Below are positions 2,490 through 11,312 of a stretch of DNA of 64,000 nucleotides, in pieces. The first letter of the stretch is position 1; each line of letters opens with the position of its first letter. The stretch is from Eledone cirrhosa (lineage: Eukaryota), in assembly GCA_964016885.1 (NCBI GenBank), contig OZ024741.1:168082001-168146000 (forward strand). Reading direction: 5' to 3'. Below the pieces are notes generated by a model. It saw only the letters and a list, made by a program, of their open reading frames with translations. It was not told the origin of the DNA and searched no databases. A program made the translations under genes and the position numbers.

Positions 2490-5400
2490 AGGCCCATTCA
2501 CTCAGGCCATTCTCGCCACTTTCACCCACCTTTCATAAAACTTGATGGGGTACAGCACCTCTCTCTCCATCCTGATTCTTCTTCCAAAGTGGTATTTGAA
2601 AAAAGAATCAGTTGTTGGCTGGAGAGAAAGGTGTCTGACCTCAGCCCTTTAAACCTTGTCCACCATACAACCTCTTTCGCCATAGCTATCACACAAAGGA
2701 AAACTGCCTCTCCTTCGTTTTTGAAGGAGGGTGGCGGTTTGATCATGACAATGGACTCGGTGGTCAACCGGATTGGTCCCACCCGCGACAATAGTCGTTC
2801 TACTAAGCCCCACAGGTTGGTGACGCCCGGGCAGTGTATGAATGCGTGCGCGACGGTTTCTTTGTCTCGCACGCACCTCGAACAGATCTTTTTTTCAGAG
2901 TCCCTGCCCGGGCGCCCATGTCTGTAGAGCTTGTCTCGAACTGGTAGAGCTCCTCGGTAGCATTGTCAGGCCAGGGACTTTTGGAAGTTGTCCATTGGTC
3001 CCGGGCGGAAGGTCCTACCGAACAGACTGGCCAGTTCGCCTAGAGTTTCACCGAGCGCGTCGTTGCACTTGCTGTGGATCAACCCTCTATAGAATGACGA
3101 AGTGGATCTCCACTGATCGCCAGGTCCGCCTGCCAAAGGGTTGTGAGCGCCTGAGCACATTCGATGTGCCAGTCACCCATTTTCCTCGGTCTTTGCTTGA
3201 CCCAAGACTGCAGCTTGGTCAGCGAGATGAGTCGTGGGAAGGCTCGCCTCACGAACGGGGCCCACACCGGTTGTCCGGTGAGGAATACGTAGAGATGCCG
3301 CAGACTGAGCGCGTGTTTGCGCATCGTCAGCCACGGGATCCCCATCCCTCCATTGGAAGGGCATTGGCAGCAGATGGATCTTATCACCAAAGGATCCCGC
3401 CTCTTCCAAAGGAATTGGAAGAGCGCGCGCTCCATTTTGGCGAGCGTTTTGGCTGGACAAGGCACGACGGTCAAGCGGTAGTAGATGGCGGACGCTATAA
3501 AAGTGTTCGCCACCTCCTCTCGACTTTTCAAGGATAGTTTGCACTCGGCCCACTTCTGGGTGAGTGCAAACACCTTGGCCGTCACCTCGTTCCAGTTCTT
3601 CTCCACCTGGAGGTCCGGACCAAACCAGACCCCGAGCAGCTTTACAGGTCCTTCCGTCCAGCGTCCGACGACGCCATCGGAAGGCATCGGTTTGCCTCCC
3701 CACGATCCGAGTTGCAAACCGATGGACTTGTCCCAGTTCAGCTTCGCTCCTGTGAACCTTTCGTATTCCTTAGGTAAGGTGCCGACTTCCTCGATTTGCG
3801 AGGCGCTCGACAGCATTACTGTCACGTCGTTGGCGTAGGCCGACGCCGCTTTCCGCAGTCCTGGTTCCAGAAGGATGCCCTGCAATAGCTCCAACTTCCG
3901 TAGTAGTGGCTCGAGAGTCATTACGTACAGAAGGGAGGAGAGAGGGCATCCCTGTCGAATGGATCGCGTGATATGGAATGATTCCAAGAGGTAGCCGTTC
4001 ACCTTGACCGTTTGAGCAGATGTTCCTGTTATGAATTGCAGCAATCCAGCCCCTGAACACGGGTCCGAAACCTGCCGCCTCGAGCACCGCATCAAGGTAA
4101 CGATGGTCAACCCTATCGAAAGCCTTAGACTGATCCAAGTTGATCAGGGCCCCACCGAAGCCGGGTTTACACCCTACCCTCTCTATGATGTATCGCATGA
4201 GGTGGAGGTTGTCGTGTATGGACCTGGTCGGGATTGCGCATGTCTGCGCTTCTCCCACCAGGTTCTTGACGACAAGCGCCAGCCTCTTTGCCAACACCTT
4301 GGCCAAAGTCTGTAACTCTGTGTTTAGCAGAGTTATGGGCCGGAAGTTGCCTATGTCATCCCTCTTATTCTCGTCCTTCCTGACTAGGGTGACTACGCCC
4401 CCGGTCACAGAACTGGGAATTTTCCCGTTCTGTTGGCAGTTGCAGTAGACCACTTCCAGGAGACCGGAGAATAAGTCCGGCATTGCTACGTAAAATTTGT
4501 AGGGTAGACCGTCGAGACCTGGAGATTTGCGTTTGCCGCATTGGTTCAGCGCGTCCCCTATCTCAGCGGCTGAAATCGGCTTTTCGTAGAACTTTGCCTC
4601 GCTGTCCGAGAGTCGCGATAGGCTGTCGAAGTATGGACCGAAATCCATAGCCCCTCCCGGTGCGCCGCCCTGCCCGAACAGTTGAGCAAAGTGCCACTGA
4701 AAGGCCGCACACATATGCTTCGGCTCACGTATCACGCGTCCGTTTTGGTCCTTCCAAGACCAAATCGTGGACTTGTTACCACTTTTTGCCTCCGTCACTC
4801 GGGCCCAGCTAACAGCTTTGGCTCCCTCGTTTCCCAGAGCACGTATTTTGCTTCTGACAACGCAGCCCTCGTGCTTTGCGTCGAAGAACTGGTCCAAGGC
4901 CGTTCTCGTTGCTAGCACGCTGGCTACGTTGCCACTTCTAATTGCCTCTTCTACTTTATCTACCAGTTCCTTCTCGGTTCAATTTCTATCTAACGCTAAT
5001 TCTTTACTAAAAACTAACGAGTCTAATCTAACTGCCCTCTTGAGGGATTACCACCATCTGTTGTTGACAATGGCTCCTGTCAAGTGCTGTTTAACTAAAG
5101 TGCCAATTCGTCTACTGTAGGCTTTGCATGTCAGTAACGACAAGTTCAGCTTCCAGTAGCCGGGTCCTTGTCTATGGGTTCTATCAAGGTTGACCATGCA
5201 GGTCACTAGTTTGTGATCTGAATAGGCAACCATGAACATTTGTGGACATCTTAACATGTCCCTATCCTTATTTCTAACTAGAACCCTATCTAGGAACGAT
5301 CTAGATGTTCCGCTGCGATTAGTCCACGTCCACAGTGGCACAGTCGGAAAATCTAGTCGATATCTATCGGCCAGGTCAAATCGGCCGATTAACTGTTTGA

Positions 5401-5892
5401 GGATGTTACACCCCCCTTTATCGAGACATGCTCCCACATAGTCCCAACGTGCATCTAGGATTCCATTCCAGTCCCCCACTAAAAGCAAGGAGCGGGACGT
5501 TCCCAGAAAAGTCTCTAGACGTTTGAAGAAGTCTGGCCGCGGTGTCCCGGATGGGGCATATGCGGCCACCAGCCTGAAGGCTCCACCTTCACTACCGTCA
5601 ACGTCTAGGACCACTAGCCGACCCTCCGGGTCCAGATGTACCGTCTGTGTTACGAGGCCCAGGTGTTTCCGCAGCAAAACGGCAACTCCGCCCCCACCCC
5701 CGGCTGACAGAGAGATGCGTAGATCTCAAAGTCATCGAAAATGGGGGCCAGCTGTCGCTCGCTGTGGATCCTGGACTCGCAAATGGCTACTACATCCATA
5801 CTGTGCGACCTGAGGTCGTTTAAGAGTTTGCCCTGTTTCCAGGGAATCCCCAGGCCGCGTACATTCACACACCCAACTCTTATATTGGTCAT
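2490..5892 (-). pseudogene. Tx1/L1 ORF2 (APE endonuclease + RT + zinc finger), broken into ORFs 5650-5892, 5048-5677, 3770-4918, 3079-4110, 2522-2872
   Basis: VGCVNVRGL, LLVGDWN, SFLDRVLV, YSDH, GPGYWKLN (APE); KSPGLDGLP, NFRPITLLN, LDQSKAFDRVDH, IRQGCPLS, AYANDV (RT); ETVAHAFIHC. Confidence 0.92.
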
Positions 5893-7441
5893 GTTGGTTC
5901 TGAAAAGTTAAAAGAGGAGAAGAAAACACTCCCCTCTTCGTCTCCCGGGGATCAGGCTGCACAGTTTCCATGGGGGTGTTAGAGGAGTTGTCTGGGTGGG
6001 TGGTGGTTTCCGGCGGGGTGGGGATGGAGATGTTTGGTGGGGTGGGAGTGTCTGGGGTGAGGGTGGGGAAACTTTTTAAAAGGACGCGGTTAATGGGTTT
6101 AACACAAGGATTACCCACGTCCTTAGGAAAGTTTTCCTTTAAAGACTTATAGGTGTCCGTAGGGACCCTAATCATCTTTAAATTAGGTTTGTCTACACAG
6201 TTCAAAAAAGTTTCCCCTTCGGTGAAAACCGAAGGGTCGTTGGAGATGACCTCCATTAAAGTTTTGTTTTTACTGTTTATGTATGTGTAATGTTCTTGTG
6301 TTGCGGTGGTTTTTGTCTGTAGGTGTTTGTGTTTGGAGTGATATCGTGGTTTTTGTTTTCGGGACGGGGGTTTTGTTTGTAATGTTTGTGTTGTTTGTGT
6401 TGGTGGATGTATGTTTGTAGTGATGTTTGTTGTTTTTTTTGTTCTTGTGGTGTCTTTTCTTCTTTCTTTTCGAACGGAGAGGCTCTCCCTCATCTTCACT
6501 TGGTGATGATGTGGGGGCCTCGTCCGTTGTGGTGTCTGTGTTATTTGGAAGGGGTATGTTTTGGGGAGCTGTTGTGTTTGTGGGTGTTTTTGCAATGGTT
6601 TTAGGTGGAGTGGTGTTGAGTGGGACTGTGCTTGCAGGTTGGTTTGTTGTTCTTGTTTTGGTTGTGTTTGCGTGTTGTTGTTGTTGTTGTTGCGGTGGTG
6701 GTGGTGGTGGTGGTGGTGGTGGTTGTGTTGTTGTTTTGGGTGTTGGCAGTAGTGCCTCTTTTTTGTTTTTAGTTAACTGAGGACAGTAAGCCTTCAGGTG
6801 ACCACTGCTTAAACAGTGGTAACATGAAGGCCGCCTACCCTCAACAGAAATGTTTATGTGTGAAATTCCATCCAGAGGCACACGTTGGGGGTATTTTAGC
6901 TATCCGTTCTGGCCTCATTTGGACCAGAACTTCCATGCTTGTACCATTGAATGTGCCTCTGGAGGACTTTCCCACCGAAATGATGGTGTCTTCGTCGAAA
7001 TCGATGAAGCCAGTTAGAATCCACGAGACGTTTCCATTTGGTGCAATGTTCAAATTTTTTATTTTTTTAGTTCTTTTTCCCATATATGTGGGGAAAAAGG
7101 TGTAAAGGGGGGACACAATCGGCGATACAGAATATTTTTGTGCTGTCAATTGGTCTTTCAACAACACTGAAATGCTTCCAAAAAGTTTCCCTTTTTGGAT
7201 GAAGGCAATATCCTTCATGGAATTCTTCAGAACCAGTTCAATATCATTTTGGGATAACTGAACTGGTTTTTTCGACACATTTGAAACCGTCCTAAAAGAT
7301 ACTGTTTTTAGAACAGTTTCTCTGTGTAACTGTTGAGGAGAAGTGATGCTGAAAGCACCACTCTCACTAAAAGTTACGTACTGTTTTGCATCGCTTAACA
7401 TTTCCCTAGCATTGGAAATGTCAAGGTATGTAAACAGTTCC

Positions 7442-8494
7442 GGGCGATATCCAATTTTAGCGGCCTAAATGCCGCTTACTTGCTGTAGTTGCTGCTTACT
7501 TCAATGTATGAGGCTATTCCAACAAATTTACATTCCCTTTTTTTTAGCCGTTAAAAGAAATATAGATTTATTTATTGTTTTTTTTTTTGCGATTTATTTG
7601 CCACTGGGGCATAGATTTCTTTATTTGCCACGTTTTTGTTTGTTTGTTTGTTTGTTTTTTTGCGATTTATTAGCCTTTTGGGGTCACACACACCCCCGTA
7701 GAAAGTGTGCGACCTTTCTGCCAGGGAGCACAGAGAGAGGGGGTGCTCCCTTCTTCTCTTACCTGTACAAACCATTTGTTGGCCGGCGACATATCCCCAC
7801 AGTTACCTCGTTCTTTCATACTTATCTTCTTCAACTACACATTGATATTTGTCTTACTGTGGAGAAGGAATTAGAAACAGTTTTATCAAAATTCACTGCT
7901 ATTCGGGAACATACAAAGCGAAATTTGGGTGACATACCAACTTCTGTTGATAATATAAGGAAAGAAATCAGTGAAGGTATTTATTACATTTTGATTGCAT
8001 TTTTATTACAACCACTAATACTTACTATTATACCGAGGGGCCCTGCCCGTTCGGGAAAGGCTCTACAGACACGGATTCCGGGACGGAAACCCCTTGGAAA
8101 AGAAATGTCCCAGATGCGTTTGCAACGAGGAAACTGTGGGGATATGTCGCCGGCCAACAAATGGTTTGTACAGGTAAGAGAAGAAGGGAGCACCCCCCCC
8201 TCTCTCTGTGCTCCCTGGCAGAAAGGTCGCACACTTTCTACGGGTGTGTGTGACCCCAAAAGGCTAATAAATCGCAAAATAACAAACAAACAAACAAACA
8301 AAAACGTGGCAAATAAAGAAATCTATGCCCCAGTGGCAAATGAATCGCAAAAAAAAAACAATAAATAAATCTATATTTCTTTTAACGGCTAAAAAAAAGG
8401 GAATGTAAATTTGTTGGAATAGCCTCATACATTGAAGTAAGTAGCAACTACAGCAAGTAAGTGGCATTTAGACCGCTAAAATTGGATATCGCCC
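7442..8494. mobile_element. Non-autonomous foldback/TIR element with ~370-bp inverted arms (7442-7812, 8124-8494) and 6-bp TSD AGTTCC
   Basis: Ends GGGCGATATCC...GGATATCGCCC; AGTTCC at 7436-7441 and 8495-8500. Confidence 0.9.
7841..7976 (+). pseudogene. RMND5: Captured host exon resembling the RMND5/GID2 N-terminus
   Basis: IDICLTVEKELETVLSKF...IRKEISE versus recalled human RMND5A MDQCVTVERELEKVLHKF; ends at GAAG|GTATTT donor. Confidence 0.65.
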
Positions 8495-9081
8495 AGTTCC
8501 GTCTTTTGGACGGTTTGAGCAAAAGAAATCTTTTCCTTGTTCGTGTTGCTATTGTTGTTGGTGGTGTTGTTGTTATCATTGTTGTTGTTGGTGGTGGTGG
8601 TGGTGGTGGTGTTGTTGTTATCATTGTTGCTGTTGTTGTTCTTGTTGTCATTGTTGTTGTTGTTCTGGTTGGTGTTGTTTATATTTTGCATGTTATTGGT
8701 GTTTGTGTTAGTGTTGATGTTACAATCAACGTCCGACATCGTGTTTTCAAAACTGACGACATTTTCGATGTCTTTCAATGAGGTGGTGAGAGGAGGTGAC
8801 TGCGAGCTTAACACTCTTACCGCCTCTCCACCACTTCTAGTTATGAACTGAATGCAAGGTTTGTTTACACTTTTCTTTTCACCGGCGAAATTTTTTTCAA
8901 AACGAAAATTTCACCCCAGGGAGGGGTGAAGATGACTTGACCCACCGTCTGAAAGTCCAGACGTGGGGTCAAGCGATAAAATAGTAATAAACTTAACAAT
9001 AATTTTTTGATTTCTTACTTAGAAAATCAACAAAAACTTACCAGCGAACTGGCACACGTCTCAAGTAAAACCAGATAGATA

Positions 9082-9645
9082 TGTTTCTTTTATTTGCCAC
9101 CAGGGCATCAAAAGTGAGACAAGTACAATAGGGGGAGTTTACAAAACAAGGCGTCCTCAATAAGGAGGAGGCAATAACAATATATAAAAATAGAATAAAA
9201 TATAACAAAAAATAAAATTTATAACAAAGTCCTCAATAGGGAGGAGGCGCCTTGGGGGGTCGCACACCCCCCCGAAAAAAAGTGTGCAACCCTTCTCCTC
9301 AGGAGTACAGAGAAGGGGTGCTCCCTTGGTCTTTCATCTTCCTCACCTATAGTCTGATTTAGAGTGGAGGCCCATTCACACGGGCCATTCTCGCCACTTT
9401 CACCCATCTTTCATAAAAACGGCTAGGGTGCAGCACCTCTCTCTCCATCCTGATCCTTCTTCTAAATGATATCGGAAGAAACGGACCAGTTGTTGGCCAG
9501 AGAGAAAGGTGTCTGACCTCAGTCCTTTCAGACGCGTCCACCATACAACCTCTTTCACCATGGCTATTACGCACAGAAACACCGCCTCTCCTTCGTTTTT
9601 GAAGAGGGGAGGCGACTTGATCATTACAATAGACTCGGTGGTCAT
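9082..9645 (-). mobile_element. 5'-truncated Tx1/L1 copy with 17-bp TSD
   Basis: TTESIVMIK..KNEGEAVFLCVIAM matches ORF2 C-terminus; GTAAAACCAGATAGATA at 9065-9081 and 9646-9662. Confidence 0.88.
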
Positions 9646-9654
9646 GTAAAACCA

Positions 9655-9655
9655 G

Positions 9656-9750
<95 letters not shown>
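9655..9750 (+). repeat. (GATA)n microsatellite
   Basis: Near-pure AGAT array. Confidence 0.95.
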
Positions 9751-9751
<1 letters not shown>

Positions 9752-9762
9752 ACACATAGATA

Positions 9763-11019
9763 TATTTCTTTATTTACCATAAAGGCATAAAAAGAAGGGA
9801 CAAATACAAAGGGGGAGTTTACATACAATCGAGTAAAAAGGGTATAAAATGAAAATAATCGAAAACAACCTCAAAAGGGAGGGGACGTGATGGGGGTTGC
9901 ACACACCCCCGAAAAAGTGTGCAATCCTTTGCCCGGGGAGCACATGGAAAAGGTGCTCCCCTCTCCTTCACTTCTTTACCTACAGGATGGTATACAGAGA
10001 AGGCCCATTTACACGAGCCATTCTCGCCACTATCACCCACCTTTCATAAAACTGGCTGTGGCCAAGCACCTCTCTCTCCATTCTTATCCTTCTTCCGAAG
10101 TGATATCGGAAGAAGTAGACCAGACTATGGCCAGAGAGGAAGTTGCCTGACCTCAGACCTTTCAATCGTGTCCACCAAACAACCTCTTTCAACATGGCTA
10201 TTACGCACAGAAAAACCGCCTTTGCTTCCTTTGTGAAGAGGGAGGCGGTTTGATTGTCATCACGGACTCGGCGGTCAATCGAATCGGCGCCACCCGCGAC
10301 AGCAGTTGTTCGGCGTAGCCCCACAGATCAGCCACGCCCGGACATTGCACCAATGCGTGCGCAACGGTTTCTTCGTGACGCACGCATCTAGGGCAAATCT
10401 TTTTCGAGGGATCCCTGCCCGGGCGCCCGTGTCTGTAGATCCTCTCTCGAACGGGTAGAGCCCCCCGGTAGCACTGCCAGGCTAGTGACTTCTGGAAGTT
10501 GTCCATTGGTCCCGGGCCGAAAGTCCTACCGAACAGGCTGGCCAGTTCGTCCTTCTCCATGTCCAGCGACTCTCCAAGGGTGTCATCGCCCCTGCTAACC
10601 ACCAGCCTTCTATAGAATGATGAGGTGGATTCTCCACCGATGGCCTGGCCCGCTTGCCAGAGAGCCCTGAGCGCCTGAGCACACTCAGTGTGCCAGTCTC
10701 CCAGTTTTCCGGATCTTTGCTTGACCCAGGACTGCAGCTAGGTGAGCGAGACGAGTCTTGGAAAGGCTCGTTTCACGAACGGAGCCCACACCGGTTGACC
10801 AGTGAGGAATACCTGTAGGTGCCGTAGCCTTAATGCGTGCCTACGCATCATCAACCACGGCATCCCCAGCCCTCCTTTCGAAGGTTGTTGGCAGCAGATG
10901 GATCTTCTCACCATAGGAGGGCGCTTCTTCCAAAGAAATTGGAAGAGCATGCGTTCCATGGTGGTGAGTGTTTCCTTAGGGCAAGGCACGACAGTCAGGC
11001 GGTAGTAAGTGACGGACGC
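9763..11019 (-). mobile_element. 5'-truncated Tx1/L1 copy (sister subfamily) with ~22-bp TSD
   Basis: YYRLTVVPCP...GGLGMP, CPRCVRHEETVAHALVQC; TAGATA(G/C)ATAAACACATAGATA at 9741 and 11020. Confidence 0.88.
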
Positions 11020-11312
11020 TAGATACATAAACACATAGATAGATACATAAACACATACATACATACACATGTAGTTAATGATGTCTAAACTCCAGTGTTG
11101 GCACTTTATTTTGAATGTTAGAAGTTGGCCCTTTCTTTATAGGAGAGAAATTTAGAAATAAATCCAGAATTGTACACATGCCTACGCACTCTCTCTCTCA
11201 CACACATACTCAATATATATTTCAAGTATTAAACTAGTATATTTCTTCCTTGTACTCTGCCATTTGTTTTGTTATTTTTGTTATTACTTTTACATACATT
11301 CATATATATTTA

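Follow-up and report, generated by a model that had tools for sequence, protein, structure and literature searches.

Merlin transposons, which are related to IS1016/IS1595, are defined by 5'-GG ends, an 8-9-bp target-site duplication (TSD) and a DDE_Tnp_IS1595 transposase in which 50-70 aa lie between block 1 and block 2 of the DDE motif, and they are abundant in an octopus genome, with 191 sequences (PMC8101967). Neither 'foldback' nor 'host gene' appears as a term in that paper. An Octopus vulgaris repeat paper has Merlin once, in a table, and never uses the word 'capture', and we found no gene capture by Merlin elements in the open-access literature.

Capture of host gene DNA by animal transposons is described for the Pack-TIRs, of which 370 were found in 100 genomes, 87% of them hAT or TcMariner and four of them multicopy (PMC8277862). 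Most are single-copy relics, and a template-switch model, FoSTeST, was put forward for their origin; Ssk-FB4 is treated in the same paper (PMC8277862). Merlin is absent from the main text of that paper, and in 12 supplementary files the name stands only at the head of a column and not in the 372-row Pack-TIR table. Variable arms are known from Galileo, of the P superfamily, where the extension of terminal inverted repeats (TIRs) has been explained as repair of one TIR from the other (PMC3573991). In plants, captured gene fragments may enter into siRNA cross-talk with the donor gene (bioRxiv 10.1101/777037, PMC3310237).

The family described here, from the octopod Eledone cirrhosa, shares elements of each of these systems. 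It has the GG ends, 8-bp TSD and DDE_Tnp_IS1595 transposase of Merlin, but unlike the Merlins of PMC8101967 as far as that source could be seen, with their TIRs of 24-462 bp, it carries a host exon and a LINE end and has arms of up to ~1,900 bp. As in the animal Pack-TIRs of PMC8277862, a few hundred bases of host gene DNA with a known, distant parent have been amplified by transposition; unlike the cases in the available parts of that paper, the capture lies within a transposase-bearing lineage, the copies occupy at least 69 loci and the cargo is duplicated in both arms. As in Galileo, which has no functional transposase left, TIR length varies greatly through recruited internal sequence, and no intact transposase was found among the 20 family loci checked. 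Here the recruited sequence includes host exon and LINE DNA and in some elements the complete transposase gene, which sets it apart from what the accessible text of PMC3573991 describes. The 5' part of a gene was captured together with an intron, as in plant Pack-MULEs (bioRxiv 10.1101/777037). The plant cases in the portions of these sources at hand are MULE, Helitron or CACTA systems, whereas the present family is a Merlin.

Structure and target site of the window copy

The window is a 64,000-nucleotide stretch of contig OZ024741.1 (assembly GCA_964016885.1). It contains an element whose inverted arms, at 7442-7812 and 8124-8494, are 96.8% identical over 374 columns of an arm-to-arm alignment, in agreement with the ~370-bp arms of an initial sequence-only reading. 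The junctions of this copy allow two formal readings, either the GGG termini and 6-bp TSD proposed in that reading or GGCG termini with the 8-bp TSD CAGTTCCG. The fetched loci speak for the latter: the TSD of 8 bp is exact in 28 of 46 left/right pairings, has one mismatch in eight and is lacking in ten, proportions that do not hold genome-wide because the loci were picked via cargo, transposase and terminus searches. The extra flanking G/C that the 6-bp reading requires is present in only 4/46 pairings, and an exact 9-bp TSD in none of the 46. All pairings were counted and none was dropped, including one doubtful 101-bp pairing; about half of the ten without a TSD are mis-pairings across nested copies and the remainder are unexplained. 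Given the 8-bp TSDs across other copies, we therefore place the element at 7443-8493 (1,051 bp), with GGCGATATCC at both ends and CAGTTCCG on either side (7435-7442 and 8494-8501, forward strand), 8 bp being the family rule. The ends had been misplaced by one base, which accounts for the earlier difficulty in assigning a superfamily.

The left transposon end (7443-7573, forward strand, starting GGCGATATCC) repeats the terminal and subterminal sequence of the family's right end. It is followed by an inverted LINE 3' piece (7593-7809, reverse strand) with the same ~130-bp deletion as in the right arm, by captured host RMND5 DNA (7810-8024, forward strand) and by a LINE 3' end (8028-8341, forward strand), internally deleted, which comprises the ORF2 zf-RVT region, the 3' UTR and polyA-signal remnants and has its distal part in the right arm. 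The right transposon end (8360-8493, reverse strand, ending GGATATCGCC) completes the element. Each arm thus consists of ~131 bp of transposon end and ~220 bp of LINE 3' sequence. The arms are a duplicated right end, mostly LINE-derived, and not simple TIRs. The duplicated right end with its LINE 3' piece had escaped the sequence-only reading, as had the exon present in both arms of longer members. The window copy is without a transposase and hence non-autonomous. It belongs to a subfamily of 1,021-1,051 bp with at least three full copies (L001, L002, L006).

The element sits within the ORF1 region of a broken endonuclease/reverse transcriptase LINE (2522-8910, reverse strand; Pfam RVT_1 and Exo_endo_phos), which we take to be L1-Tx1-like. 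On this strand its parts are the ORF1 region (8910-6270), endonuclease (5725-5048), reverse transcriptase (4978-3770) and zf-RVT (2965-2522). When the empty site is rebuilt by removing the element and one TSD, ~167 codons across the ORF1 region contain no stop, so that the clean insertion into a LINE ORF1 described earlier is borne out. Stacked LINE 3' fragments, at window 9249-11136 and 2470-2619, lie beside the 5' end of the target LINE; they belong to the same broad family as the LINE piece in the element and are 75-80% identical to it.

A host RMND5 exon as cargo

The coding part of RMND5 exon 1 (45 codons plus a G, beginning with ATT) occupies window positions 7841-7976 on the forward strand. 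As read earlier, 7841-7975 translates without interruption and is followed by the G at 7976 and a GT donor at 7977-7978. The likeness to the RMND5A N-terminus noted earlier also held, RMND5A being the sole match of the peptide up to E 10 in the PDB (177,635 sequences; E 0.048), with residues 2-42 aligned to 2-42. A weak search for homologous proteins with longer targets gave none at E <= 10 among nine candidates. Pfam returned Laminin_II for the 45-aa peptide, a weak match below the cut-off, and this identity was rejected.

A CTLH search gave seven matches with one RMND5-type locus among them, on C5. Exon 1 of this host gene lies at C5:79536336-79536471 and its protein is 84% identical to the window peptide; host exons 1, 2 and 5 match RMND5A with E values of 5.1e-4, 1.2e-12 and 3e-16. 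A 1,435-nt contig of sequencing run X1 splices exon 1 to four further exons, with joints that are GT-AG once the shared AG is placed and with the same donor as that of the cargo. The four runs come from one study and their kind is not on record; X1 is likewise not recorded as RNA, and its RNA-like status rests on its spliced contig.

Comparison with the host locus including intron 1, as had been suggested, identified G000:C5:79536172-79536556 as the parent of the cargo. The cargo is ~95% identical to it and takes in exon 1, the DNA 5' of the exon and 48-85 bp of the intron. In most copies the host DNA amounts to 348 bp, made up of 164 bp upstream of the exon, the exon itself and 48 bp of intron, and in three (L126, L127, L129) to 385 bp with 85 bp of intron. 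The window copy retains 215 bp (G000:C5:79536305-79536519, 94.4% identity over 215 bp), namely 31 bp 5' of the start codon, the exon 1 coding sequence and 48 bp of intron 1. As host intron and 5' flank are retained, the capture was from DNA, and the Pack-type capture proposed from the window alone is upheld by the exon and donor located in the host gene and by the intron sequence kept in the cargo. The family also has the marks of a Pack-TIR, with non-TE host sequence of known parent, intron kept past a donor that is used, and copies at 69 loci on 19 contigs with distinct TSDs. Within 80 kb around the host exon, no match to the element other than the cargo was found, which fits a FoSTeST origin.

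Host intron 1 contains a very high-copy repeat (L043 ~557-1000) that starts near the end of the longest captured piece. This repeat may either indicate where the switch occurred or be younger than the capture.

A cargo-specific 26-mer occurs 96 times, at no fewer than 69 loci on 19 contigs, and divergent inverted pairs are present at 26 or more of these 69 loci, 21 of them spaced 265-307 bp; both the locus and the pair counts are lower bounds. The expectation that the element had moved as one piece is confirmed by its many other copies with distinct 8-bp TSDs. An ATG is present in 31 of 32 exon rows and an ATG with an open frame in 28 (the rows represent 30 distinct copies, two being counted twice). 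The change from ATG to ATT noted earlier is thus true of the window copy, to which it is private, but is not a trait of the family.

Six differences between cargo and host exon are fixed in all rows and all six are nonsynonymous; the minor cargo variants comprise 19 nonsynonymous and 2 synonymous changes against 106:29 sites, and the 32 rows give no sign of purifying selection. The exons diverge by 0.7% from the copy majority and by 5.2% from the host, a pattern that fits a single, older capture with neutral decay after it and a burst in recent time. These divergences and the fixed nonsynonymous differences speak against a peptide with a function and against a foreign ortholog as the origin of the cargo. 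The exon is probably carried along as a neutral passenger. In the sequences there appears no sign of a useful protein, and no function of the cargo is shown.

It is unlikely that the family has been kept or co-opted for its exon, either because it lends a start codon and a splice donor to genes nearby or because it makes hairpin RNA against RMND5. The ATG with open frame in 28/32 rows and the retained GT donor could be read in this way, but open frames are expected from the young age of the copies (0.7% divergence) and purifying selection is absent. The inverted pairs at 26/69 loci would supply the hairpins: in L014, a 1.7-kb form, every one of the 135 exon bases finds its partner in the opposite arm, with perfect runs to the host of 44, 39, 22 and 21 nt, yet the window copy has its exon in the loop, with 0/135 bases paired and no ATG. 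Run X1, with its spliced contigs, also has a 129-nt contig carrying the six cargo letters at depth 31.5 (99.5 for the host spliced contig), depths that give no ranking; this contig may be genomic carry-over or intronic passenger RNA, and the cargo donor is joined to another exon in none of the X1 contigs listed. On element L066, neither X1 nor the DNA-like run X2 has a joint at the cargo donor among the contigs listed. Nor do X1-only A>G or T>C runs occur in the L066 cargo among these contigs, which drop rare variants, so that silence is not implied.

We also give little credence to a source in another RMND5 copy, be it a paralog, an older allele with a LINE in intron 1 or the gene of another species from which the element was transferred horizontally. 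Such a source would explain why cargo and host differ by 18 substitutions in 331 aligned bases against 0.7% among the copies, and why LINE and intron are directly fused. Against it, the six fixed coding differences are all nonsynonymous, where a functional ortholog or paralog would show the reverse; a single RMND5-type locus was found among the seven CTLH matches; and host intron sequence does not resume past the LINE tail. Capture from the RMND5 locus on C5 remains our preferred reading.

A LINE 3' end as second cargo

Adjoining the RMND5 piece is a LINE 3' end with a zf-RVT region (E 2.3e-7), 3' UTR and A-rich tail, ~750 bp long in the oldest-looking copies. The window subfamily has deletions of 184 bp at the RMND5/LINE junction and of ~130 bp within the LINE piece. 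No donor copy of the LINE piece was identified; outside the element, the best matches among the sequences compared are 75-84% identical.

Assignment to the Merlin superfamily

The earlier reading had asked for other copies with the same termini, and in the 3.0-Gb genome the exact 19-bp terminus has 280 matches (135 forward, 145 reverse) against 0 for the reversed control. A genome search with PF12762 gave 150 scored matches. At two loci the same ends and 8-bp TSDs enclose an IS1595-type DDE transposase that scores above the Pfam cut-off for PF12762 (L042, 2,473 bp, 56.7 bits; L054, 3,828 bp, 33.2 bits). Because copies with the same ends encode this enzyme, and because they have GG ends and an 8-bp TSD, we assign the family to Merlin, where previously no superfamily had seemed assignable. 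The termini begin 5'-GG on both sides (GGCGATATCC) and the TSD count (28 exact and eight one-mismatch of 46) is that of an 8-bp duplication. In the L067 ORF the D, D and E, presumably the catalytic residues, are spaced 62 and 39 residues apart by hand count, in keeping with Merlin spacing. The window arms (370 bp) and the original left end (~50-70 bp) fall within the 24-462 bp of Merlin TIRs, and extended arms reach ~1,900 bp.

An autonomous transposase partner had also been sought. A Merlin transposase does lie within the same ends, but none of the 20 family loci checked has an intact frame, so we can only infer the mobilising enzyme; the best frame of the cargo family (L067, 286 aa) ends before the C-terminal motif. 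A sister Merlin family, with ~72% DNA identity, related ends (GGCGATCCTTGG) and 8-bp TSDs, has no match to RMND5 or the LINE and includes one full-length transposase frame of 321 aa (L080). Its transposase is sister to that of the cargo family in a tree, with support of 100/100.

That the family belongs to another superfamily, be it MULE, hAT, P/Galileo or an unknown one marked by GGG termini and a 6-bp TSD, the Merlin transposase being itself cargo, is highly improbable. The 6-bp reading is formally possible in the window copy, and the long variable arms recall Galileo as described in the available text of PMC3573991. GG ends and 8-bp TSDs across copies nevertheless refute the 6-bp reading, and the cargo-free sister family has the related ends, the 8-bp TSDs and the sister transposase of a Merlin. 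Pack-MULEs carry a ~9-bp TSD and a MULE transposase; here exact 9-bp TSDs number 0/46 and the transposase is of IS1595 type. Elements of the hAT superfamily have an 8-bp TSD, CA/TA-type ends and a hAT transposase, and of these only the TSD fits, the ends being GG and the enzyme IS1595-type. Nor was a P-superfamily (Galileo/Foldback) transposase found in place of the IS1595-type enzyme, and the Merlin assignment stands.

Two further Merlin groups were seen. One has GGCACTACAACG ends, with 8-bp TSDs in L053 and L056, and forms foldbacks at L053 2753-6033 (C28), L055 1943-4988 (C1) and L056 1971-4807 (C4) with the 3' part of the transposase present in both arms; as this second family also folds back, foldback may be a widespread tendency among the Merlins of this genome. 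The other (L023-L040) has GGCATA ends, several open frames of 325-341 aa and mostly 9-bp TSDs, is frequently found in AT microsatellites and is possibly still active.

Foldback arms and their history

The oldest-looking copies run from a short left TIR through promoter region, transposase, 3' UTR, 385 bp of RMND5 and ~750 bp of LINE 3' end to the right end. In 16 of 18 distinct transposase-bearing elements the RMND5 piece lies directly 3' of the transposase 3' UTR, and the other two are without that end, which places the capture in the founder of the lineage that bears the transposase. No member of the family itself was found without cargo. In three elements (L126, L129, L128) the promoter region adjoins a short left end of ~50-70 bp. 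In the remaining elements the right end recurs, inverted, as the left end, with arms of ~50, 95, 180, 370 (the window copy), 420, 520, 610, 790, 940, 1,000 and 1,900 bp, the ~1,900-bp arms duplicating the transposase gene. Long TIRs extended by internal sequence are also found in Galileo/Foldback elements, a resemblance in behaviour only.

Lineage-specific deletions are mirrored in both arms (L054, L042, L067, L074, L125 and the window subfamily), and subfamily substitutions are likewise found in both, so arm-to-arm copying occurred several times. Of the private substitutions in 22 elements, 100 are confined to one arm and 8 are shared by both, and continuous arm conversion is therefore unsupported. 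An element's own arm is its nearest relative in only 8/22 cases, in a comparison in which columns past ~370 are misaligned for deletion-bearing copies and inflate between-element distances. From these two counts, the copying was episodic and not continuous. Some of the elements with short arms may have arisen from a fully folded master by deletion and not by extension.

Upstream of the transposase, L054 has an imperfect palindrome of ~310 bp (3800-4140; 83-88%). The full foldbacks L054 and L125 are centred on this palindrome, which may seed fold-back priming. Where the transposase frame ends (L054 5130-5180) there is a short hairpin with a perfect stem, which the cargo-free sister family has as well. 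In at least four cases among the fetched loci (L130, L102, L133, L059), family copies are nested in family copies, those in L130 and L102 with an 8-bp TSD of their own.

Inverted duplications are a known long-read artefact, but the arms differ by 1-4% and are bounded by locus-specific TSDs, the same inner junction recurs at 21 loci with a spacing of 265-307 bp, and in run X2 the cargo letters reach depth 641 against ~3-9 in neighbouring single-copy contigs (a rough hint), which leaves foldbacks made by chimeric or fold-back reads with a negligible probability.

Discussion

We conclude that the window element is very probably a transposase-less Merlin copy carrying host RMND5 exon 1 and a LINE 3' end, the exon having likely been captured once by template switch into a transposase-bearing founder and the arms likely being the right end copied over the left. 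The RMND5 capture would have come about by template switching during DNA repair or replication, and the LINE piece may have been added by a second template switch or by 5'-truncated retrotransposition. Left ends would then have been replaced through repeated arm-to-arm repair in lineage founders. Deletion derivatives are found at many sites with different 8-bp TSDs, and were probably moved in trans by the family's Merlin transposase. One of them, the window copy of the 1,051-bp subfamily, sits in a LINE ORF1. The observations of the sequence-only reading are thereby partly confirmed, with the ends corrected, and its interpretation is supported.

Pack-TIRs, Merlin and Galileo-like arm extension are each known already. 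What is new, against the open-access literature, is the combination of a Merlin element, capture in an autonomous lineage, spread to at least 69 loci and cargo folded into both arms. The family extends animal gene capture to Merlin at at least 69 loci. It also keeps a series in one genome, consisting of the short-armed transposase-bearing form, half and full foldbacks and non-autonomous derivatives, and since this series is complete, a single genome suffices to read off in which order capture, arm copying and amplification came.

A further, doubtful reading is that Merlin has made exon 1 of RMND5, an essential ubiquitin-ligase gene, into at least 26 dispersed near-perfect hairpins several hundred base pairs long, whose passenger dsRNA, with perfect matches of 21-44 nt to RMND5 mRNA, would let silencing or editing of the transposon tune the host gene. 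If true, this would be an animal case of capture-driven epigenetic conflict, arising from an element that folded back its own right end. With small-RNA data, the 26 hairpin copies allow a direct test in an animal of cross-talk with the donor gene.
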